Below, piece by piece: positions 24 to 29,516 of a DNA stretch of 31,190 nt (positions are counted from its first letter, which is position 1; each line of letters starts with the position of its first letter). The position numbers and the translations under genes are program-made. The notes beneath the pieces are model-generated. The model had not been told where the DNA came from, did no database searches, and saw only the letters and a program-made list of their open reading frames with translations. Origin of the DNA: a virus (lineage: Duplodnaviria > Caudoviricetes); the IMG/VR virus record IMGVR_UViG_3300030059_001160, positions 1 to 31,190 of that record; one strand, 5' to 3'.

Positions 24-521
24 ATGACAACAAAAAACCCAAACAATAACCGGTTATTATTAATAAGCGGAATTATATTACTGTCTTTCTTGTTTAAAGC
101 TACTGAAGCTAACACAATTGTTTTTCAATTTAAAAACCCAGCGTTTAATGGTATTGGTACATCGGCTCATTATTTAACTGTTGACGAACAGGAAGCCTCG
201 CGAAAGCTAAAAATAGCTGAAGACATTCAATCGGCTATTGACGAAGCAGCAAGAGAGCTTGATAACACAACGCTTGCAAAATTTGTAAGAAACCTAGAGT
301 CAAGGATATTTAGTCGTTTAAGTCAAGACCTTGCTGAATCATTGTTTAACGACGAGGGTGGCACGGGGGGCTCTATTGATTTAGAGGGGAACACTATTAA
401 TTTTTTAAACACCGGCACAGAAATTGTCTTGACAATTCTTGACATAGACGGCGTTACCACAGAAATTAGAATTCCTATAAATTCCTTTGGGATTTGTGCA
501 GATGCGCCATGCGCGCCTTAG
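24..521 (+). CDS. csgF: Curli assembly/transport component CsgF-like protein
   Basis: Hydrophobic signal peptide ending ATEA. Mature N-terminus TIVFQFKNPAFNG resembles the CsgF N-terminus (E. coli GTMTFQFRNPNFGG). FVRNLESRIFSRLS helix and C-terminal TTEIRIP strand follow. GGAG upstream; directly precedes csgG. Confidence 0.85.
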   Translation: MTTKNPNNNRLLLISGIILLSFLFKATEANTIVFQFKNPAFNGIGTSAHYLTVDEQEASRKLKIAEDIQSAIDEAARELDNTTLAKFVRNLESRIFSRLSQDLAESLFNDEGGTGGSIDLEGNTINFLNTGTEIVLTILDIDGVTTEIRIPINSFGICADAPCAP

Positions 522-1282
522 TCTTAGCATTTTTTCTTTACGGTTGCGCACCACTTGCTGTAATTGGAGACAAGGAAGGGCCCATAATAGAAAGACCTTC
601 TTTAAGTTCCTTAGTTAACCTTCCTGCACCAAAACAAAAAGCAGTAATTTCTGTTTATAAATTTCCCGATTTAACGGGACAACGTAAAGACGCAGATAAC
701 ATGGCTTTGTTTAGTACCGCTGTAACCCAAGGTGGTGATTTATACCTTATTGAAGCTTTAATGAATGCCGGTCGGGGTACTTGGTTTACTGTGATAGAAA
801 GAATTGGTTTAGCCAATTTAACCAGGGAGCGTCAATTAATAGTTAATACTAGAACTACTTACGACGGGGAAGGGGCTAATAAATTACAGCCTTTGCTTTA
901 CTCCGGTTTAATTATGGAAGGCGGTATAATTTCTTACGACAGTAATTATTTAACCGGCGGTATTGGCGCAAGATACTTGGGTATTGGCGTTAATAACCGT
1001 TACAGGCGAGATCGTGTTACAGTATCTTTACGAGCCGTGTTGGTACAGACAGGTGAAATATTACTTAACGTGTCAACCAGTAAAACAATATTTTCAGCAG
1101 GGGCCGGTTCTGATGTTTTTAAATTCTATGAAGCAGGGACAGAATTAGTTGAGATAGAGTCGGGTTTAACCGAAAACGAAACTGTGGGGTATGCAGTAAA
1201 AATTGCAATAGAAACCGCAGTTTACGCATTAATAATACAAGGGATTGAACTTGATATGTGGGATTATAAAGAAGGGGAATAA
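509..1282 (+). CDS. csgG: Curli secretion channel CsgG/HfaB-family outer-membrane lipoprotein
   Basis: ATG at 509 gives MRALVLAFFLYGC with a lipobox. CsgG motifs present: VYKFPDLTGQRK, FSTAVTQGG, WFTVIERIGLANLTRERQLI, EGGIISYD, GGIGARYLGIG, YRRDRVTVSLRAV, TGEILLNVSTSKTI. Confidence 0.95.
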   Translation: MRALVLAFFLYGCAPLAVIGDKEGPIIERPSLSSLVNLPAPKQKAVISVYKFPDLTGQRKDADNMALFSTAVTQGGDLYLIEALMNAGRGTWFTVIERIGLANLTRERQLIVNTRTTYDGEGANKLQPLLYSGLIMEGGIISYDSNYLTGGIGARYLGIGVNNRYRRDRVTVSLRAVLVQTGEILLNVSTSKTIFSAGAGSDVFKFYEAGTELVEIESGLTENETVGYAVKIAIETAVYALIIQGIELDMWDYKEGE

Positions 1283-1283
1283 A

Positions 1284-1988
1284 ATGAAGATTTACAATGC
1301 AATAATGTGGAGTGCGGTATTTCTAGCTTTTGTTGTTTCAGGGACTATAGCATTAGGCGCAAATAACAGTATATATATTACCCAATCTGGTACAGCATTG
1401 ACTATGAATATAGATCAAATAGGTAACAGCAACGTAGTGGGTACAACAGGGACAAGAGCCACTTTCACAGGTACTACAATAACCGTTGATGTTGACCAGA
1501 CAGGGGACTCGAATACGTTAGCCGCTACGGTAGCTCAAGGTAATAATACGAGCTTCACCGTTAATACGACAGGTGATAGTAACGTATCAAGTATCGTGGG
1601 CGGGGGTTCAGGTGATATAGCGGGCACTGACTTTGACTATGCCGCCACTGGAGACTCTAATGTTTTAACTTTTGTGCAAGGAGCAAGTGCGGCGGCTACA
1701 TCGGGTAATCAAGATTTCGCAGTTACGGGAACATCTAATGATGTTAATGTTAGATGTGAAGTAGTTGGGTGCGTAAATAGCTGGACAGTGAGCGGCAACT
1801 CTAATGATATAGATACTACCCAAACTGGGAACGCAAACCACTCAATTACAGGTGTCATTACAGGAAACAGTAATAACATTGACGTTGACCAAACAAACGC
1901 AGGCGGTTCTACAACGGGTATTTTAAGTATTATAGCAACAACTTCAAGTGGTACGATTGATATAGATCAATGCACTTCTGGCTGTTAA
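1284..1988 (+). CDS. Secreted curlin-repeat (CsgA/CsgB-like) beta-solenoid protein 1
   Basis: Start at ATG 1284 after the purine-rich GAAGGGGA. Sec signal peptide, then T/G/N/S/Q-rich repeats of [IV]xQxGxSN or TGDSN (IDQIGNSN, VDQTGDSN, TTGDSN, ATGDSN, VTGTSN, VSGNSN, TQTGNAN, ITGNSN). Ends in QCTSGC. Confidence 0.8.
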   Translation: MKIYNAIMWSAVFLAFVVSGTIALGANNSIYITQSGTALTMNIDQIGNSNVVGTTGTRATFTGTTITVDVDQTGDSNTLAATVAQGNNTSFTVNTTGDSNVSSIVGGGSGDIAGTDFDYAATGDSNVLTFVQGASAAATSGNQDFAVTGTSNDVNVRCEVVGCVNSWTVSGNSNDIDTTQTGNANHSITGVITGNSNNIDVDQTNAGGSTTGILSIIATTSSGTIDIDQCTSGC

Positions 1989-3043
1989 TTTTTATACCGG
2001 CGTTTGCACTTGCAGACATAGGCTTAATTTCTGAAATAAAAGGCAATGGCGAAATTATACGAAAGAATCAATCGGATAAACTACTTGCAGAGCTTGCTCT
2101 CAATATCTTTAGCAATGACGATGTGCGTACTGGCAACGGGCGTATTGCTATTCAGTTTATTGACGATAGCGTTATTAGGCTTACTGAACATAGTAAGATT
2201 GTTATTGACGAATACATTTTTGATCCAAACCCTGAAAAATCTACATTGTCGCTCAACTTCGTCAAAGGAACGGGTCGTTTTGTTACTGGAAAACTTAAAC
2301 GAATCAAAAAAGAAAATATAAAAATACGAACTAATAGTGCAACTATTGGAATTCGTGGAACTGATTTTACAGTAAGCGTTGATGAAACAGGACGCAGTTT
2401 AGTTATACTTCTACCTAATCCTGACGGTACATCTAGTGGTGAAATAACGGTGACAACTTTTGCTGGAACTGTAGTCATGAACCAACCTTTCCAAGCTACT
2501 GTAGTGACTGTAGCAGAGTCTGCTCCAACCAAACCTGTCGTGTTAGAAAACCTGACGCTTGATTTTATAGATAATATGTTAATTGTTAATCCACCAGAAG
2601 AAACTGAACGTGCCGTAGCTGAGCAAAATGCATCAGGCAGCCTTTTAGATATTGATTTACTTGAAGAAACTGAGCTGGAAAAAGATTACCTTGATGAAGA
2701 GTTTGACGATATAGATCGTTTAGATATCGACCTACTTAACGTAGATTTTTTGACTGATCTTTTAGACATTATAGACAATAGTGTAGGTTCAAAAGCTCAA
2801 GTTAGCATTTTAAATGGTGTAGAAATTGAAGGTGTTAAAGCTGGCTTTGACCCTATAAATCAGTCATATACATTTGTAGAAGGCTCGGTATTAACTTTCT
2901 TTAGGTCTGTTGAAAATACGATTGACTTAGAATTAGATAAAGACGGTACTTATAATATTGATATTTTAAGCGCAGGCAAAGAAATAAATATGACAATTAA
3001 CGGAGGTGGTGAAAGTGAGATCTCTATTAATCAGTCTAATTAG
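1970..3043 (+). CDS. Secreted FecR-domain protein with acidic C-terminal extension
   Basis: Signal peptide (AFALA/D). FecR-type motifs DDVRTGNGRIAIQFIDDSVIRLTEHS, GTGRFVTG and IRTNSATIGIRGTDF. Acidic LDIDLL repeats follow. Overlaps both neighbouring curlin-like genes. Confidence 0.85.
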   Translation: MHFWLLIFIPAFALADIGLISEIKGNGEIIRKNQSDKLLAELALNIFSNDDVRTGNGRIAIQFIDDSVIRLTEHSKIVIDEYIFDPNPEKSTLSLNFVKGTGRFVTGKLKRIKKENIKIRTNSATIGIRGTDFTVSVDETGRSLVILLPNPDGTSSGEITVTTFAGTVVMNQPFQATVVTVAESAPTKPVVLENLTLDFIDNMLIVNPPEETERAVAEQNASGSLLDIDLLEETELEKDYLDEEFDDIDRLDIDLLNVDFLTDLLDIIDNSVGSKAQVSILNGVEIEGVKAGFDPINQSYTFVEGSVLTFFRSVENTIDLELDKDGTYNIDILSAGKEINMTINGGGESEISINQSN

Positions 3044-3824
3044 TTACATTGTTTTATTGTGGATAGTTACTCATTTAGCATACGCATCTGATAACACTAT
3101 TGCTATTCAAACTAAAGGTACAAGCACTTCAATGTCGATAGATCAATCTGGCACATCAAATACTGCAACAGTATGGTGTGGGTTAAGCGGTGGTGCATAC
3201 GCTACACACTCATGCTCTAATGCAACCATAACAATAGACCAACACGGAACTAGCAATACAGCAAGAACGTATTCTCAAATAACCAATCACAATGACAATG
3301 TATACACGATTAATCAAAATGGAAACTCAAACAATGCGTATATTGACCTAGATGATGACGATAACGTAGCTATTATTACTCAAACAGGTAACTCAAACAC
3401 TGGTATTATCTATATGAAAGGTGATGACAACGCTTATACCATTACTCAGACAGGCTCAAACTTCTACGCAAAAATGTATGCCTTTGGTGATGATAGTACA
3501 TGGGCGATAAGTCAATCAGGTACTGGTAATCATAACGGTTATATAAAGAGCTGTAGCAACTGTAACAATAACGATGCTACGATTACCCAATCAGGTAGCG
3601 GGGCAAAAGACGGTGACATCGAGTTTCGTAATAATCCTGCCGATAACAACACCGTAAACCTAACGCAAAGCGGTAACGGTCTTCATACTGGCAATATTTT
3701 AGTCAAACAAGGTTCTTACACTGTCAACGCAACTCAGACAGGTAGCACCAATAAAAACTACACAGTGACTTTAGATTGCACTTCGTCATGTAATAAAACC
3801 GTAACGGTAAACCAGTTTGATTAA
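3015..3824 (+). CDS. Secreted curlin-repeat (CsgA/CsgB-like) beta-solenoid protein 2
   Basis: GTG at 3015 with GGAGG at 3002-3006. Signal peptide ends AYA/S. About nine IxQxG repeats (IDQSGTSN, IDQHGTSN, INQNGNSN, ITQTGNSN, ITQTGSN, ISQSGTGN, ITQSGSG, LTQSGNG, ATQTGSTN). Six Cys in three apparent pairs. Confidence 0.85.
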   Translation: MRSLLISLISYIVLLWIVTHLAYASDNTIAIQTKGTSTSMSIDQSGTSNTATVWCGLSGGAYATHSCSNATITIDQHGTSNTARTYSQITNHNDNVYTINQNGNSNNAYIDLDDDDNVAIITQTGNSNTGIIYMKGDDNAYTITQTGSNFYAKMYAFGDDSTWAISQSGTGNHNGYIKSCSNCNNNDATITQSGSGAKDGDIEFRNNPADNNTVNLTQSGNGLHTGNILVKQGSYTVNATQTGSTNKNYTVTLDCTSSCNKTVTVNQFD

Positions 3825-23014: not shown

Positions 23015-23027
23015 TAAAATATTACAT

Positions 23028-23498
23028 ATGAATATATTTAAACTAGATAAATCTATACGATCCTGTGCAGAAATGCACTGTGATAAACACGTATCAAAAA
23101 TGATACTCGAGTCTGCTCAAATGTTGTGTACTGCGTTGTGGATTAACGGTCAATCAGCCCCGTATAAATCTGTACACGCTAAACACCCCTGTACTCTATG
23201 GGCTGCAGAAAGCCTTGATAATTGGATGTGGTTAAAGGAATTAGCTATATATCTTAACGAAGAGTTTTGCTGGCGATACGATAGGGTTCAAAACCATAAA
23301 TCTGCTGATGTTGTACTGTCGTTACCCGCCCCGCCTATAGAAAGTAAAGGACTACAACAACAACCGCAGTGTATGCCTGAAGAGTATAAAGTAATCAATG
23401 ACCCTGTAAAAGCATATCGTAATTACTACATGGGTGAAAAACAGAGTTTCGCACAATGGACTAAAAGAGAGGTTCCAGAATGGTTCAAGACCAACTAG
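23028..23498 (+). CDS. Pyrimidine-dimer DNA glycosylase/endonuclease V-like family protein
   Basis: MNIFxLD...HCDKHVSKMILESAQMLCT, HAKHPCTLW, PQCMPEEYK, AYRNYY and WTKREVPEW are signature motifs of this phage family. Confidence 0.75.
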   Translation: MNIFKLDKSIRSCAEMHCDKHVSKMILESAQMLCTALWINGQSAPYKSVHAKHPCTLWAAESLDNWMWLKELAIYLNEEFCWRYDRVQNHKSADVVLSLPAPPIESKGLQQQPQCMPEEYKVINDPVKAYRNYYMGEKQSFAQWTKREVPEWFKTN

Positions 23499-24310
23499 AA
23501 AGGTTTTTCTACTATATAAATGAAAGACACAATATTTACCGTAAACGTCAGGAAGGTGAAAAGTTTCCGTGGACTAAAGACGAAATACTACAAACGTATA
23601 GTTTTTGTAATGTTTTTCGTGAGTTAGATAAAGTAACGATATGGCTTAGAGAAAATTGGAAAGAACCTTATGTCGACCATCCCAACCTTCCTTTTGCTAT
23701 GGCTATGGCTCGTCAAATTAATTGGCCAGAGACTTTAGAAGAACTAGGTTTTCCTGAACATTGGAACCCTGAGCGTCTTAAAGCTATAATGCAAGGTAGA
23801 ATGAATAGGAAAGAAAAAGTTTATACAGGTGCATATATGTTGACTGGTACGTTAGGAGGCACTAAAGTAGAGCAAACCATAGATAAAATATTAACACCCT
23901 TATATGAAAACCCACCAACTATTTATAAAAATAGTCTAGAAAAAACTTGGGCTGAGTATTTACCGTATGCTGGGTTTAGTGGATTTATGGCTTATGAGGT
24001 AGTCACAGACCTACGTCATAGTAAGTATCTAGAAAATGCTGATGATATTATGACTTGGGCTAATGCTGGTCCAGGAGCGAAACGTGGGTTAAATAGGATT
24101 TACGGTAGACCGTTAGATCAAACCATTAAAGGTTTTCAATTGACTGAAGAAATGGAACTATTATTGAATTTTTCTGACCAAGAAGGCATACTAGAAAAGT
24201 ATGTACCTAATTTAGAAATGAGAGAAATAGAGCATTGCTTGTGTGAGTTTGATAAATATGAGAGAGTAAGGCTCGGTCAGGGCAGACCAAGGTCAAAATA
24301 CAAACCATGA
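23480..24310 (+). CDS. aGPT-Pplase clade 1 family DNA-modification protein (HhH-glycosylase-like fold)
   Basis: FFYYINERHNIY, PWTKDEIL..YSFCNVFRELDKVT, YTGAY, GFMAYEVVTDL, NAGPGAKRGL and EIEHCLCEFDKY motifs. Confidence 0.85.
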   Translation: MVQDQLERFFYYINERHNIYRKRQEGEKFPWTKDEILQTYSFCNVFRELDKVTIWLRENWKEPYVDHPNLPFAMAMARQINWPETLEELGFPEHWNPERLKAIMQGRMNRKEKVYTGAYMLTGTLGGTKVEQTIDKILTPLYENPPTIYKNSLEKTWAEYLPYAGFSGFMAYEVVTDLRHSKYLENADDIMTWANAGPGAKRGLNRIYGRPLDQTIKGFQLTEEMELLLNFSDQEGILEKYVPNLEMREIEHCLCEFDKYERVRLGQGRPRSKYKP

Positions 24311-24810
24311 ACATAAATAATTTATTCGAAGTGGTGCGCGGCGGCACTATAAAAAGATATCATACATTAGAAACTATCGGAGAGCAGTCTGTGGGAGCTC
24401 ATTCATGGGGCGTAGCTATGATACTACAATATCTAAACCCTGAAATTAGTAAGACAGCTATATTGAGAGCACTTACTCATGATGTAGCGGAACTATATAC
24501 GGGAGATATACCCGCCCCTGTAAAATGGGATAATCCAGAATTAACAACGGTGCTGAAAAATATAGAAGCAGACTATGAGAAAAAATTAGATATAAACTAC
24601 ACAGAAAACTTAACACCAACAGAATATTTACTGTTTAAACAGGCAGATATGTTCGAATTATTATTTTTCTGTATGCGTCAGAGAAAAATGGGTAACACTA
24701 ACATGAATACAGTTTTCAGTAACGGTGTGGAGTTTTTAGCTAAACATGATCTCAATGAACGTGGTTCAAATTTACTCGGTAAACTTATAGAAGAATATGG
24801 AGGTATCTAA
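24307..24810 (+). CDS. HD-domain nucleotide phosphohydrolase (YfbR-like)
   Basis: KRYH, QSVGAHSWGV, LTHDVAELYTGDIPAPVK and KQAD metal-binding pattern. Confidence 0.88.
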   Translation: MNINNLFEVVRGGTIKRYHTLETIGEQSVGAHSWGVAMILQYLNPEISKTAILRALTHDVAELYTGDIPAPVKWDNPELTTVLKNIEADYEKKLDINYTENLTPTEYLLFKQADMFELLFFCMRQRKMGNTNMNTVFSNGVEFLAKHDLNERGSNLLGKLIEEYGGI

Positions 24811-25117
24811 AATGTCTTTACCAAAAAAATTTCAAGAAATGATTGATATAACTGAGCAAGACGTAGAAGAACTAATGGAAGCAGAAAAAAGTTATGGGGA
24901 TAGTTGGCGCAAGCGTGGAGGCACAGGCGCTTTTATGATGCTAGCCCGTAAATGGGATAGAATAGAAAACCAAGTTAAAGCCCATAATTTTGATGTATTC
25001 ACCGCCATCCAAAAAGATAAGAGACCAGAAGGTATCATAGATGATATCCACGACCTACGCAGATACCTGATTTTAGTAGAACAATTTATGTATGAAAAAC
25101 CAGAGGAGACCCAATGA
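24797..25117 (+). CDS. MazG-like/nucleotide-modification-associated all-alpha protein (putative dNTP pyrophosphatase)
   Basis: KSYGDSW, RKWDRI and DDIHDLRRY match the YGDSW..K..R..D...DL..Y pattern. Lies inside the modification cluster. Confidence 0.65.
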   Translation: MEVSKMSLPKKFQEMIDITEQDVEELMEAEKSYGDSWRKRGGTGAFMMLARKWDRIENQVKAHNFDVFTAIQKDKRPEGIIDDIHDLRRYLILVEQFMYEKPEETQ

Positions 25118-25905
25118 AAATATACATCCCGACAAGAGGTAGACCACGTAATCAAGTGACGCTAGAATTTTTTCCTAAAAGTATGGTAGAACACGGTACA
25201 GTAGTGTTAGCTATAGACGAAGACGAAAAAGACCAATATGATAAATACCCAGACGTACCTAAACTGGTTATCCCTGCTTTTGTTAAAGGGATTAGTGCTA
25301 AACGAAAATACATAGTAGAACAAAGCACTGATCCTCGCATAGTTATGTTGGACGACGACTTACGTTTCTATATCCGCAAAAGCCCTACTGATTGGCACCT
25401 CAGGTATTTAGAGCCTGATGAATACTACGCTTTGTTTGGTTTACTAGATGAATGGATGGATCATGGGTACGCTCATGTAGGGATAAGTGCTAGGGAAGGT
25501 AATAACCGTGTTGAAGATTTATCAGTAGAAAACACAAGGTATATGAGGGTGCTTGGCTATAACCTTGAAGCCTTCCCCTCTACTATAGAGTGGAATAGAA
25601 CTCAAGTTATGGAAGATTTCGATATTTCTTTGCAACTATTGAGAAAAGGTAAAGCATGTAAGGTAAGCTATTACTATGCTCAGGGTCAAAAATCCTCTAA
25701 CGCAGACGGTGGTTGTAGTGAGTGGAGAACTATTGATGTACATAACGCAGGTGCTGAAAGGTTGAACGAGCTTCACCCGACTTGTGTCAAAGTAGTTGAA
25801 AAACAAACTAAAACTGCGTGGAATGGTTTACCTCGTAAAGACGTAATAGTGGGTTGGAAAAAAGCATATAAAGAAGGTGTAGAAAATGCAAGTAATCAAA
25901 GTTAG
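25114..25905 (+). CDS. GT-A fold glycosyltransferase, TET/JBP-associated (GREB1-like) type
   Basis: MKIYIPTRGR N-terminus, GISAKRKYI, IVMLDDDLRF (DxD), MEDFDISLQLL and NADGGCS. Confidence 0.8.
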   Translation: MKIYIPTRGRPRNQVTLEFFPKSMVEHGTVVLAIDEDEKDQYDKYPDVPKLVIPAFVKGISAKRKYIVEQSTDPRIVMLDDDLRFYIRKSPTDWHLRYLEPDEYYALFGLLDEWMDHGYAHVGISAREGNNRVEDLSVENTRYMRVLGYNLEAFPSTIEWNRTQVMEDFDISLQLLRKGKACKVSYYYAQGQKSSNADGGCSEWRTIDVHNAGAERLNELHPTCVKVVEKQTKTAWNGLPRKDVIVGWKKAYKEGVENASNQS

Positions 25906-26956
25906 AAATGTACACGAAGCACTGCCCCGAGGGTTAGATTTATTAGCGGAAACTGGAGTGTGTTTAGAAGGTAGTAGAAATGGGGTGGTTTACGAAGCCC
26001 CTACTCCTGTAACCACAGTATACAGCGAACCTACTGAACGAGTTATGTTTTGGGAACACCGTAATGCTAATCCATTCTTTCATTTTATGGAAGGATTGTG
26101 GATGCTGGCTGGAAAAAATGATTTAAAAACTATGTATCACTATGCTAAAAATATGAAAAACTACAGCGATGATAACAAGATTCTATGGGGAGCATACGGG
26201 TGGCGGTGGCGCAGGTTTTTCAAAATAGATCAACGAAAAATAGATCAATTAGATGTAATAACACACATGCTAGACCGAGACCCTGAAAATAGACGTGCCG
26301 TTTTACAAATGTGGGGTATAGAAGATTTAGCTCGTAAAGGTAAAGACGTTCCCTGTAATACGTGTGTATATTTTAAAATACGAGACGGAAAACTAAACAT
26401 GACCGTATCAAATAGGTCTAATGATATTATTTGGGGAGCATACGGTGCTAATGCCGTACATATGTCTATGCTTCAAGAATATATGGCAGGTAGGCTTGGT
26501 GTCGAAGTAGGTGTGTATAATCAAGTTAGTGACAGTTATCATGCTTATAAAGATATTTTTGATGATCTTTTACAGAAGTTTGTAGAAGATGATATACTAG
26601 ACTATTATGTACAGTCCTTACCTCATAATAAAATGAGAATGAATCCTTACATAAAAGGATCAGTGAGCCCATATCCTATGATGAATAAAAAGTATGAACC
26701 ACCTTTTCATCAAAACTCAGGTTTTAGGTGGGACTACGAACTTGAAGTCTTTTTGAAAAGAGAACCTTTTAAAGAACTACGTCAATCAACATTAGGTGGA
26801 ATAGATAGTTTTTGGGGAGACGTAGCTGTCCCTATCCAAGATACTTGGGCACATTGGAAAAATAACGACATAGATTCAGCCATGAAAAAGATAGAAGAGT
26901 GTAAAGCTACAGATTGGCGTAAAGCGTGTCTAGAATGGTTAGAGAGAAAATTATGA
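25886..26956 (+). CDS. Thymidylate synthase homolog, probable dUMP hydroxymethylase
   Basis: NPFFHFMEGLWML, GAYG.RW, RRAVLQMW, catalytic PCN (PCH in ThyA), NRSND.IWG...N and DSYHAY. The Asn at the specificity position indicates a dUMP substrate. Confidence 0.85.
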   Translation: MQVIKVRNVHEALPRGLDLLAETGVCLEGSRNGVVYEAPTPVTTVYSEPTERVMFWEHRNANPFFHFMEGLWMLAGKNDLKTMYHYAKNMKNYSDDNKILWGAYGWRWRRFFKIDQRKIDQLDVITHMLDRDPENRRAVLQMWGIEDLARKGKDVPCNTCVYFKIRDGKLNMTVSNRSNDIIWGAYGANAVHMSMLQEYMAGRLGVEVGVYNQVSDSYHAYKDIFDDLLQKFVEDDILDYYVQSLPHNKMRMNPYIKGSVSPYPMMNKKYEPPFHQNSGFRWDYELEVFLKREPFKELRQSTLGGIDSFWGDVAVPIQDTWAHWKNNDIDSAMKKIEECKATDWRKACLEWLERKL

Positions 26957-27633
26957 TATATCAATGGTCTTACAGTAGATTAGGTTGTTATGAAAGATGC
27001 CCTAAACAAGCAGAGTTTAAGTTTATAAAAAAGATAAAAGAGCCAGGAAGTGCTGCAATGGATAGGGGTAAAAATATCCATCAGTTATGTGAAGATTACA
27101 TACGGGGTAATATAGATAACATTCCTAAAGAGTTATCAGAGTTTGAAGAGGCTTTTGATTCCCTTAAAGAACTATACCTTTACGGTCATGTTATATGTGA
27201 AAGTGATTGGGCTATAACTAAAGAGTGGGAAAAAACAGGTTGGTTTGCTGAGGATACTTGGGGCAGAGCAAAGGTCGATGCGTTTGTTTATGAAGAAGGT
27301 ATAAGTAATGAGGCAAGAGTAATAGACTTTAAAACAGGTAGGTATCAAGGTAATCAAGAAGCGCACAGAGAACAGTGTGAGTTTTACGGTTCGGTAGCCC
27401 TTAAACGATACCCAGAACTTGAAAGCATAGTTACTGAGATGTGGTATTTAGACCACGGTAAGATAGATAGATACATATACACACCGGCAAGTATCAAAGT
27501 TAAACAAGAAAGGATACATGCTAGAGCTATGGCTATGACTACTGCAACAGAGTTCCCAGCTAAACCTTCTAGGTTTGGTTGCAAGTGGTGTCATTTCGGT
27601 AAAGAAAATATGTGTACAGAGGCAATACAATAA
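26953..27633 (+). CDS. PD-(D/E)XK exonuclease, Cas4/RecB-like, with putative Fe-S cysteines
   Basis: WSYSRL...RCP, RGKNIH, KVD, VIDFKTG and C-terminal CKWC...C. Probable start is ATG 26953. Confidence 0.85.
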   Translation: MIYQWSYSRLGCYERCPKQAEFKFIKKIKEPGSAAMDRGKNIHQLCEDYIRGNIDNIPKELSEFEEAFDSLKELYLYGHVICESDWAITKEWEKTGWFAEDTWGRAKVDAFVYEEGISNEARVIDFKTGRYQGNQEAHREQCEFYGSVALKRYPELESIVTEMWYLDHGKIDRYIYTPASIKVKQERIHARAMAMTTATEFPAKPSRFGCKWCHFGKENMCTEAIQ

Positions 27634-29516
27634 TGCAAGACCCTTTATTTCCACCTGACACACAGTGGTCAGCCCCTACGTCTTTCCCTGATTTAACGGG
27701 ACAAAAAGCCATAGCTATAGACCTAGAAACTAAAGATCCATGGCTTATGTCCCATGGTCCAGGATGGGCTTTCAGAGACAGAGGGTTTATCATAGGTATT
27801 GCGATAGCTAGTGAAAACTACAGAGCTTATTTTCCAGTAGCGCATGAAGTAGGTGGTAATTTAGATAAACAAGTGGTTTACAGGTGGCTTAAAAAACAAC
27901 TAGAAGCGCCTAACGATAAAGTTTTCCACAATGCTCAGTATGACGTAGGTTGGTTAATGAGAGAAGGATTTACTATCAACGGTAAAATTCACGATACTAT
28001 GATGGCAGCACCGTTATTAAACGAAAATCAATATGGGTACTCATTGAATAAAATAGGTAAGTTATATCTAAATGAAGAAAAAGATGAGACTATGTTAATA
28101 GAAGCCGCCCAAGTTTACGGGGTAAATCCTAAAGCAGAAATGTATCGTTTGCCTCCTGAATATGTTGGAACATATGCAGAACAAGACGCTGACTTAACCT
28201 ATAGGCTGTGGCAAAAATTGAAACACTTGATACATAAGGAAAATATTCACGACATATATAACCTAGAAAGTTCTTTACTACCTACTTTGATCGACATGCG
28301 TATGCGAGGGGTGAGGATTGATACCGACAAAGCGCAACAGGTTAAAAAACAGCTATTGACAGAAGAAAATAAATTAATAAAAGAAATACACAGGTGGTAC
28401 GGTCTTAAGCCAGACCTTTGGGCAGCACAATCATTATCTCAGGTATTTGACCGTGCTGGACTTGAGTACCCTAGAACACCTAAAACAGATGCGCCTAGTT
28501 TTCAAGCTAGTTGGTTAGAGGCGCACGACCACAAGTTACCCTCTACAATAGCTAGAGCTAGAAAGCTCAATAAAGCTAGAACTACTTTCATAGATAAAAT
28601 GATATTAGAACATTTAGTAGACGGCAGGATACATGGAGAACTCCATCCTTTACGGTCTGATGACGGTGGTACGGTAACGGGTAGGTTCAGTTGTTCAAAA
28701 CCTAATCTCCAACAAGTACCTGCTAGAGATCCTGTCATTGGTCCACTTATTCGCAGTCTGTTTATACCTGAAGAAGGTCATCACTGGGGTTGTTTTGATT
28801 ACTCTCAGCAAGAGCCTAGACTTACTGTGCACTATTCTGTTTTAACACATCAAGACGGTGCGGAAGAAGCAGCGATAGAGTACCACGACGACGATGCAGA
28901 TTTTCATCAAATAGTGGCAGACATGGCTAACATAAGCCGTAAAGAAGCTAAGTTGATTAACTTAGGACTCAGCTATGGGATGGGTAAAGAAAAATTAACG
29001 AAACAATTAGGTATTAGCCCAGAGGAGGCAGAGCTCCTTTTTGACCAGTATCATAAGCGCGTACCTTTCGTAAGGGGTTTAAGGGACTCCGCAGCGCGTC
29101 AAGGGGCTAATAGAGGGTATGTCAATACGATACTAGGGCGTAAGTGTAGGTTTAACTTATACGAACCTATAGATAGGAGAGCTATCCCATATCCTATCGA
29201 TAAAGCTATGGAGGAATATGGAGGGCAGTTAAAACGCGCTTTCACATATAAAGCTATGAATCGATTAATACAAGGATCTGCTGCAGACATGACAAAGCAG
29301 GCTATGTTAGATCTACATAAAGAAGGTATTATAGCCCACACTCAAGTTCATGATGAGTTAAATATATCCGTAAAAAACATAAAAGACTGTGAAAAAATTA
29401 TGGAAATAATGCGAGACTGTGTTAAGTTAAAAGTACCCAATAAAGTAGATGGAGAAATAGGGAAAAGTTGGGGTGATGTTATAGACTACAGAGAGTATTT
29501 CAATGGCAAGAGCTAA
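27633..29516 (+). CDS. polA: Family A DNA polymerase with 3'-5' exonuclease domain
   Basis: Exo I IDLET, exo II FHNAQYD, exo III YAEQDA. TVTGRFS, PNLQQ, motif A FDYSQQEPR, motif B RKEAKLINLGLSYG, IQGSAAD, motif C QVHDE. ATG at 27633 overlaps the upstream TAA. Confidence 0.97.
   Translation: MQDPLFPPDTQWSAPTSFPDLTGQKAIAIDLETKDPWLMSHGPGWAFRDRGFIIGIAIASENYRAYFPVAHEVGGNLDKQVVYRWLKKQLEAPNDKVFHNAQYDVGWLMREGFTINGKIHDTMMAAPLLNENQYGYSLNKIGKLYLNEEKDETMLIEAAQVYGVNPKAEMYRLPPEYVGTYAEQDADLTYRLWQKLKHLIHKENIHDIYNLESSLLPTLIDMRMRGVRIDTDKAQQVKKQLLTEENKLIKEIHRWYGLKPDLWAAQSLSQVFDRAGLEYPRTPKTDAPSFQASWLEAHDHKLPSTIARARKLNKARTTFIDKMILEHLVDGRIHGELHPLRSDDGGTVTGRFSCSKPNLQQVPARDPVIGPLIRSLFIPEEGHHWGCFDYSQQEPRLTVHYSVLTHQDGAEEAAIEYHDDDADFHQIVADMANISRKEAKLINLGLSYGMGKEKLTKQLGISPEEAELLFDQYHKRVPFVRGLRDSAARQGANRGYVNTILGRKCRFNLYEPIDRRAIPYPIDKAMEEYGGQLKRAFTYKAMNRLIQGSAADMTKQAMLDLHKEGIIAHTQVHDELNISVKNIKDCEKIMEIMRDCVKLKVPNKVDGEIGKSWGDVIDYREYFNGKS

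Follow-up and report, generated by a model that had tools for sequence, protein, structure and literature searches.

A predicted kinase-free route to glycosylated 5-hydroxymethyluracil in a marine podovirus, with a clade 1 enzyme as candidate for converting the unsugared base to thymine

Introduction

In phages of the M6/ViI type, 5-hydroxymethyldeoxyuridine (hmdU) is made before replication and modified afterwards (Lee 2018, 2022; PMC13458397). These phages carry a 5-hydroxymethyluridine DNA kinase (5-HMUDK), a clade 2 aGPT-Pplase transferase and enzymes of the pyridoxal phosphate (PLP) and radical S-adenosylmethionine (SAM) types. In the kinetoplastid base J system (JBP and JGT), a dioxygenase hydroxymethylates the base within the polymer and JGT glucosylates 5-hydroxymethyluracil (hmU) in DNA. 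Here, we describe a five-gene cluster in a contig of 31,190 bases, which is the entire IMG/VR record IMGVR_UViG_3300030059_001160 (the window hereafter; CheckV completeness 51%), that encodes a clade 1 aGPT-Pplase, an HD-domain protein, a DUF1599-like protein, a glycosyltransferase (GT) of the TAGT family and a thymidylate synthase (TS) homolog. We hold it to be fairly probable, on the basis of gene content and diagnostic residues, that hmU replaces T at replication, that a GT-A enzyme sugars part of it directly without a kinase, and that the clade 1 enzyme acts on hmU, most likely converting what stays unsugared to T.

The same families have been mapped before. HTVC023P-type genomes carry TS, aG/PT-PPlase1, 5'-deoxynucleotidase and beta-glucosyl-HMC-alpha-glucosyltransferase genes near the family A DNA polymerase gene, PolA (Wittmers et al. 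2022, PMC9599517), and the available text of that paper mentions no chemistry, missing kinase or swapped slot. In the complete genome of PhiJL001 (an Alphaproteobacteria phage, AY576273), gp19 (clade 1), gp22 (TAGT), gp24 (TS) and gp25 (HD) stand before PolA as in the window, with 30-45% identity and, like the window, no kinase and no clade 2 gene over the cut-off. PhiJL001 differs in belonging to the Mesyanzhinovviridae and in having a dCMP deaminase, Nmad5 and DUF3310 in place of the DUF1599-like gene. Cultured phages with clade 1, TS and TAGT are PhiJL001, LuckyBarnes and RSL1. The pathway had been taken as unreported in a preliminary description made from the sequence of the window, which does not hold for the gene set: it is real, well conserved and already mapped, and it would be a variant of hmU hypermodification. 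A literature survey of titles, abstract openings and selected passages, with subscription papers and supplements outside its scope, found no report of glycosylated hmU from a phage with TS and GT-A or of clade 1 function, and no nucleoside analysis of PhiJL001 DNA.

Compared with M6, ViI, PhiW-14, PaMx11 and SH-Ab 15599, the window has similarly placed orthologs of M6 gp55, gp58 and gp59, and differs in having a GT-A enzyme instead of the kinase, clade 2, PLP and radical SAM enzymes, so that a glycosidic linkage, formed with no need for phosphate, would be expected. With the base J system it shares the GT-A fold and the R...DDD...EDY/F motif of JGT, whereas the hydroxymethyl base would be made by a dUMP hydroxymethylase. 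Phages SP-15, YerA41 and Carin-5 (PMC12686479) carry sugars on the T-coding base of their DNA, as proposed here, but these are phosphate-containing oligosaccharides that come with many sugar genes and another polymerase subfamily, none of which is in the window cluster.

Results

The five plus-strand open reading frames (ORFs) of the cluster overlap by 4, 14, 4 and 20 bases, in order, and lie between primase/UvrD and exonuclease/PolA, the exonuclease ORF overlapping the TS homolog (Table 1). The set of overlapping genes of named families given by the preliminary description was borne out by the ORF coordinates and, for four of the five, by Pfam: hidden Markov models matched PF18723 (164 bits, cut-off 25), the YfbR-like HD family, TAGT PF20691 (95 bits, cut-off 27.5) and Thymidylat_synt.

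Table 1. Coordinates of the cluster and of the neighbouring genes discussed in the text.
Feature	Position	Strand	Basis or remark
Pyrimidine-dimer glycosylase/endonuclease V-like ORF	23028..23498	+	ESM atlas 0.96; PF03013 on 54-78% of top clusters
aGPT-Pplase clade 1 (PF18723), 276 aa	23480..24310	+	Pfam E 6e-48
HD 5'-deoxynucleotidase (YfbR-like), 167 aa	24307..24810	+	Pfam E 1.6e-17
DUF1599/Nmad1-like all-helical protein, 106 aa	24797..25117	+	ESM atlas likeness and motif, no Pfam match
TAGT GT-A glycosyltransferase, 263 aa	25114..25905	+	PF20691 E 7e-27; phrog_842 E 2e-52
Thymidylate-synthase homolog, likely dUMP hydroxymethylase, 356 aa	25886..26956	+	Thymidylat_synt E 8e-23
Family A DNA polymerase (PolA)	27612..29516	+	Pfam; would incorporate hmdUTP; places phage in HTVC023P-type lineage

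The TS homolog was 43-44% identical, over its full length, to M6 gp58 and PhiJL001 gp24. Three sites are diagnostic in this family: N177 for dUMP, an acidic residue at L143 for a hydroxymethylase and D169N for a hydroxylase (PMC13326640). The window protein has D154 at the L143 place, C157, D180 (equivalent to D169) and N189 (equivalent to N177), which makes it like SPO1 gp29 and M6 gp58 and unlike ThyA or T-even gp42; at the N177 place, T-even gp42 and MilA have Asp. It reads KDVPCN where ThyA reads ALAPCH, and keeps RSND, so that the PCN (156-158) and RSND (177-180) motifs and the dUMP-specifying Asn189 named in the preliminary description are all present. In a quick tree of 37 rows, in which several reference branches are long, it grouped, with a support of 94, with M6 gp58 and PhiJL001 gp24, and stood away from E. 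coli ThyA and a T-even dCMP hydroxymethylase. The diagnostic residues and the 43% identity to M6 gp58 support the earlier call of an hmdU synthase and argue strongly for a dUMP hydroxymethylase that makes hmdUMP.

The GT model (pLDDT 89.5) has a GT-A fold with AvpGT, K4CP and TarP as best Foldseek/PDB matches, while a PDB sequence search with the protein gave no match. Residues R10, D80-D82 and E167-D168-F169, conserved in at least 95% of 60 GT homologs, fit the motif R...DDD...EDY/F, which is given for trypanosome JGT and for the active DNA GT-As of phages (Pyle et al., bioRxiv 2023.12.21.572611). The TET-linked phage GT-As of that study were assayed on 5-hydroxymethylcytosine, whereas the window GT, 45% identical to PhiJL001 gp22, is predicted to act on hmU. 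No match to a TET/JBP dioxygenase was found among the 32 ORFs scanned with Pfam in the window, itself a fragment. The cluster holds no sugar-nucleotide gene, and the donor is therefore likely to be a host nucleoside diphosphate (NDP)-sugar. Taken from fold and motif, the GT likely transfers a sugar to the 5-hydroxymethyl group of hmU within DNA; the product may be base J, which is beta-D-glucosyl-hmU, or another, base J-like glycoside with a different sugar or anomer.

As the preliminary description had noted, no P-loop kinase, clade 2, radical SAM or PLP gene was matched in the window, a record 51% complete. Among related records, PF18748 (the kinase) matched 4 of 43 and PF18724 (clade 2) was over its cut-off in 3 of 44, none of them GT-bearing; among 13 IMG/VR records with a completeness of 90% or more, seven have this GT-A, and neither profile matched in any of the seven. 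PF18748 alone was rejected as proof of absence, since it missed the kinases of PhiW-14, 15599 and Montesquieu, and a custom kinase profile and a Walker A scan were therefore added. The profile, made from fetched sequences, found the held-out PhiW-14 (E 8e-25), TM26 (1e-39) and Montesquieu (5e-6) kinases, and it gave nothing at E 0.5 in the window, LuckyBarnes and the GT-A relatives G002, G004, G007, G008, G010, G014 (99-100% complete) and G019 (80%), and nothing better than E 0.1 in PhiJL001. In the marine records, Walker A motifs occurred only in helicase, structural or spurious frames, with no kinase-like ORF. One of these relatives, G002 (99% complete), has the identical five-gene order and 29 ORFs in common with the window, at a mean identity of 67%. 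The clade 2 profile missed the annotated clade 2 gene of Montesquieu, so its sensitivity to distant clade 2 genes is limited and the absence of clade 2 is less sure than that of the kinase. The PF18723 protein was also considered as the kinase on account of its Pfam name, 'HMUDK_hel', and discarded, its model being all-helical and lacking a Walker A motif. RefSeq calls the 5-hmdU DNA kinases of M6 (L002:7426-7989) and P26218 (L174:6385-6963) 'terminase small subunit', a label that PHROG 800 also gives to clade 1 matches.

Which modifier gene stands beside clade 1 and TS was then counted across related loci. Five IMG/VR scans gave 116 distinct clade 1 sequences, of which 26 were dropped for short flanks; of the 90 left, four lacked a TS at a distance of up to 6 kb, which gave 86 loci. 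Seventy-five had a glycosyltransferase without a kinase (63 GT-A, 12 GT-B-like), six only a SAM methyltransferase and five a kinase without a GT, and none combined GT and kinase. Taken from the side of the enzyme, 60 of 83 GT-A sequences were well flanked, and every one of the 60 had clade 1 and TS but no kinase. GT, methyltransferase and kinase loci were interleaved on the TS tree. MW202897 (TAGT) and Molly_1 (annotated beta-glucosyltransferase) have GT and TS and lack clade 1. Two apparent cases of clade 1 and TS without a modifier were rejected: L255-L261 have a GT-B-like ORF (L256 and L261, which had no Pfam match of their own, were grouped with L254), and in Montesquieu clade 2, PLP and P-loop genes lie at other places in the genome. 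Judged by gene content, the slot is one that is swapped between GT-A, GT-B, methyltransferase and kinase set; the word 'reduced', which the preliminary description had used of the pathway, does not fit it. The missing kinase and direct glycosylation, which that description had also proposed, are supported by the six near-complete GT-A relatives without a kinase under the profile that found the three held-out kinases and by the mutual exclusion of GT and kinase beside clade 1 and TS. Its other suggestion, that sugar is added through the clade 1 enzyme, is disfavoured by the GT and TS loci without clade 1 and by the constancy of clade 1 residues across partners.

Several variants of this slot were observed. 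A 283-amino-acid (aa) SAM methyltransferase accompanies clade 1 and TS, without GT or kinase, in L090:6959-7810, L092, L093, L097-L100 and L103 (G027 complete); the clade 1 proteins of these loci have EGGLCE in place of EHxLCE and Q in place of N44, and their product could be 5-methoxymethyluracil or another small base. The literature survey found no account of this variant. Three GT-B-like families occupy the slot (L091, L095, L107, L109, L112 and L246; L255-L261; L143), some with an FkbM methyltransferase or radical SAM/SPASM gene. In L253, L262, L264, L266, L268, L271 and L272, a TAGT gene followed by a radical SAM/SPASM gene lies between clade 1 and TS, possibly for a tailored sugar. Sulfotransferase, adenosine phosphosulfate (APS) kinase and deacetylase genes adjoin clade 1 and TS in L258:596-3022, L005 (RSL1 ORF232-238) and L101:11691-12374, hinting at sulfated DNA sugars. 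In one subgroup (L044-L070, e.g., L050:13289-13705), the DUF1599-like gene and PolA are separated by a cytidylyltransferase-like gene, which may activate the sugar of the GT. Many relatives (e.g., L139:2227-2811) have an AlkB-like 2-oxoglutarate-Fe(II) oxygenase gene immediately upstream of the cluster; it is absent from the window. Kinase and clade 1 without a clade 2 match occur in L111 (G032, complete), L101, L177 (Nachito) and L185 (SP10), where phospho-hmU may be the end product or clade 1 may be the transferase. The cultured Rhodoferax phage P26218 (L174, gp14-gp17) has clade 2, kinase, TS and HD without clade 1; no paper on its DNA modification was found.

The clade 1 protein was 42.7% identical to M6 gp55 and 39% to PhiJL001 gp19. 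Its model (pLDDT 94.8) is helical, with a helix-hairpin-helix (HhH), and its best structural match was a clade 2 transferase, PaMx11 gp46 (Z 11.0, rmsd 4.1, 215 aligned residues); an OGG glycosylase came within 1 Z of gp46, followed by other HhH enzymes. A PDB sequence search gave no match and Foldseek only gp46, at E 0.15. D34, E251 and C255 align with D25, E222 and C226 of 15599 Pplase2, in which D25 and E222 are metal ligands and C226 is the catalytic Cys (PMC13458397). Conservation was examined in 126 clade 1 sequences (83 from GT-A, 13 from GT-B, seven from methyltransferase, nine from kinase and four from other loci, and 10 from named phages); part of the loci had been found by the pattern LCE[FW]DKY, and the named phages independently of it. 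R16, F42, R47, D50, F169, D177, G197-P198-G199, C255, E256 and K259 were invariant in all 126, D34 was kept in 125 and E251 in 115. In clade 2, the residues equivalent to E256 and K259 vary with the donor.

Two further genes complete the cluster. The HD protein (31% identical to M6 gp59 and 30% to PhiJL001 gp25), whose gene is found in 41 of the 86 loci and missing in 45, is likely an accessory nucleotidase that depletes dTMP/dTTP. The 106-aa ORF had no Pfam, NCBIfam or PDB-sequence match; its ESM-atlas likeness of 0.95 is to a cluster in which 11% of members carry DUF1599, which we take to be MazG-like. The Montesquieu hydroxymethylase, encoded at L350:5492-7042, ends in a fused copy of its YGDSWRxRG..ARKxDR motif (hhalign probability 94.4, 31 columns); LuckyBarnes gp41 (L004:6436-7989) has the same length. 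The DUF1599-like family or DUF3310 is present in 84 of the 86 loci, and the 106-aa protein is likely a dUTP/dTTP pyrophosphatase that would feed the hydroxymethylase.

The phage is an HTVC023P-type marine podovirus and the contig about half of its genome. Among cultured or sorted phages, its PolA best matched 023Pt_psg01 (51%), DSL-LC04 (51%), HTVC027P (49%) and HTVC023P (48%). A curli operon (type VIII secretion system; CsgF, CsgG, two curlin-repeat genes and FecR) opens the window (24-3824), a described trait of HTVC023P-type phages (PMC9599517). The organism-labelled datasets holding the DNA of the window are marine metagenomes, with no RNA dataset among the holders listed. Contigs from four sequencing runs tile the cluster region in pieces, the main strain having no frame-breaking change; coverage by metagenome contigs carries no information on base modification. 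The endonuclease V-like ORF upstream, which had no Pfam match, overlaps the clade 1 gene by 19 bases; in the gene orders of relatives such a gene adjoins the cluster often, not constantly, and it is probably not part of the modification pathway. Contig joins across 23020-23438 in two runs, with a side of only 37 bases, suggest strains without it. In the relative G007, a 102-aa Lys/Thr-rich ORF (L154:1287-1592) scored 22.8 for ETX_MTX2 against a cut-off of 22, probably a composition artefact.

Discussion

The pathway that we propose would begin with the DUF1599-like and HD proteins, which, from their families and neighbourhood, would drain dTTP/dUTP and supply dUMP. The TS homolog would convert dUMP to hmdUMP, a well-founded step in view of its diagnostic residues and its 43% identity to M6 gp58. 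Host kinases, which have been proposed for hmdUMP in the paper on phage 15599, would make hmdUTP, no phage dNMP kinase having been seen, and PolA would incorporate it. TAGT would then move a sugar from a host NDP-sugar to the CH2OH of hmU, as suggested by GT-A chemistry and by the exclusion between kinase and GT; the hydroxyl itself would be the nucleophile, so that no phosphate activation is needed. Direct glycosylation is the most likely route because no kinase was found in the window or its relatives and no locus combined GT and kinase. Finally, and speculatively, Cys255 of the clade 1 enzyme would add to C6 and expel the 5-substituent to give an exocyclic methylene, which a hydride quench would turn into T. 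The likely use of the modification would be to shield virion DNA from host nucleases.

A role of clade 1 in all these phages is indicated by its pocket, which is invariant across partners and therefore argues for one reaction common to all of them. The enzyme is probably not the one that adds the sugar, as its active-site residues are partner-independent and GT and TS occur without it. Virions of SP10, PhiW-14, M6 and ViI contain no hmdU, which is converted to hypermodified base or to thymine, and M6 gp55 is dispensable for glycine transfer (Lee 2022). The clade 2 enzyme gp51 gives thymidine with borohydride, and the M6 kinase phosphorylated about 23% of hmdU in vitro (Lee 2022). Modified T amounts to 30% in M6 and 40% in ViI (Lee 2018), so plain T occupies about 70% of the T positions in M6, and this share, set against the kinase yield of about 23%, fits a T-forming step that is independent of the kinase. 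In 15599, dT/dA is 0.77 (15599 paper). PF18723 is present in the five measured phages, SP10, PhiW-14, M6, ViI and 15599, and absent from the fully hmU SPO1 (10 of 16 records matched). From this pattern, we tentatively propose, at somewhat under even chances, that clade 1 is a polymer-level hmU-to-T enzyme. The widest form of the proposal, which we regard as doubtful, is that in the packaged DNA of abundant marine podoviruses T positions are a kinase-free mixture of T and sugared hmU, either base J or a new glycoside, and that clade 1 reduces hmU to T on DNA in all such phages, from SP10 and PhiW-14 to M6 and the phage of the window.

A number of observations weigh against this scheme. The hydroxyl is a poor leaving group, and the 126 clade 1 sequences have no second conserved Cys or cofactor-binding domain for a reductant. 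Clade 1 adjoins or is fused with the kinase in M6 and SP10. The GT family includes, at 28% identity, a T2/T6-type enzyme named for an already glucosylated base. The 36 unassigned ORFs of the complete relatives G002 and G007 yielded no dNMP kinase or dCMP deaminase; together with the absence of HD from 45 of 86 loci, this means that replacement of T may be partial, the host pool possibly supplying T. GT loci are over-represented in the locus sample, the queries having come from the window, and the loci are kin, so that the 75/6/5/0 split is not an independent count. The window itself is only a 51% fragment. Finally, SP10 and Nachito combine kinase and clade 1 with no PF18724 match, yet SP10 makes glutamylthymine, so that clade 1 may act as a transferase in SP10.

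If that role were general, clade 1 would be the first transferase, placing a small nucleophile on hmU, and the GT, methyltransferase or GT-B enzyme would then decorate this adduct; the final base would be more elaborate than base J. Consistent with this are the retention in clade 1 of the metal ligands and catalytic Cys of clade 2, the presence of clade 1 in all 60 well-flanked GT-A loci, the ability of TAGT relatives to use sugar acceptors, and SP10. We nevertheless consider it unlikely: the available text attributes no additional base in those virions to M6 gp55 or ViI gp160, GT and TS exist without clade 1, and no kinase is there to create a leaving group.

A similarly low probability attaches to the idea that hmU is glycosylated directly and clade 1 is an eraser, its Cys-methylene intermediate being quenched by water to hmU, or an HhH glycosylase excising U, T or hmU. 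The partner-independent conservation suits such a role, the fold matches OGG, Mag1, EndoIII and a queuine-salvage hydrolase at Z 8-10, close behind gp46, and an endonuclease V-like gene often overlaps the clade 1 gene. However, a single pocket would have to accept sugars, amines, amino acids and the C-C linked M6 base, the conserved residues match the Cys/metal site of clade 2, and the T of M6-type virions would be left unexplained.

That TS makes dTMP, or hmU only in a small share, with the GT acting on a non-DNA target and virion DNA near-canonical, seems very improbable. The lack of a phage dNMP kinase or dCMP deaminase among those 36 ORFs and the assembly of this DNA from ordinary marine metagenomes would agree with it, but L143D, RSND and the TS tree all indicate a hydroxymethylase, and GT, TS and clade 1 are tightly and repeatedly linked beside PolA. 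Least probable by far is a kinase and clade 2 pair in the absent half of the genome, making a known amino-acid-type base: despite the 51% completeness, the Montesquieu kinase-like and clade 2 genes 5 kb from its clade 1 and TS, and the failure of the clade 2 profile on that clade 2 gene, syntenic near-complete relatives such as G002 have neither a kinase nor a PF18724 match.

In the reading that we prefer, with direct glycosylation of hmU and clade 1 forming T, the clade 1 enzyme is a more valuable lead than the gene set. It makes testable which enzyme turns hmU to thymine on the DNA of SP10, PhiW-14, M6 and ViI, and the kinase-free clusters, together with natural phages lacking clade 1 (P26218, MW202897 and Molly_1), yield clean predictions. 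If the modifier beside clade 1 is a plug-in, as the widest form of the proposal has it, more undescribed bases would be expected in the relatives with a methyltransferase or GT-B. If true, phages of a lineage common in seawater would make a base J-like base from hmU pooled before replication, and the window GT would offer a single-enzyme tool to sugar-label hmU.

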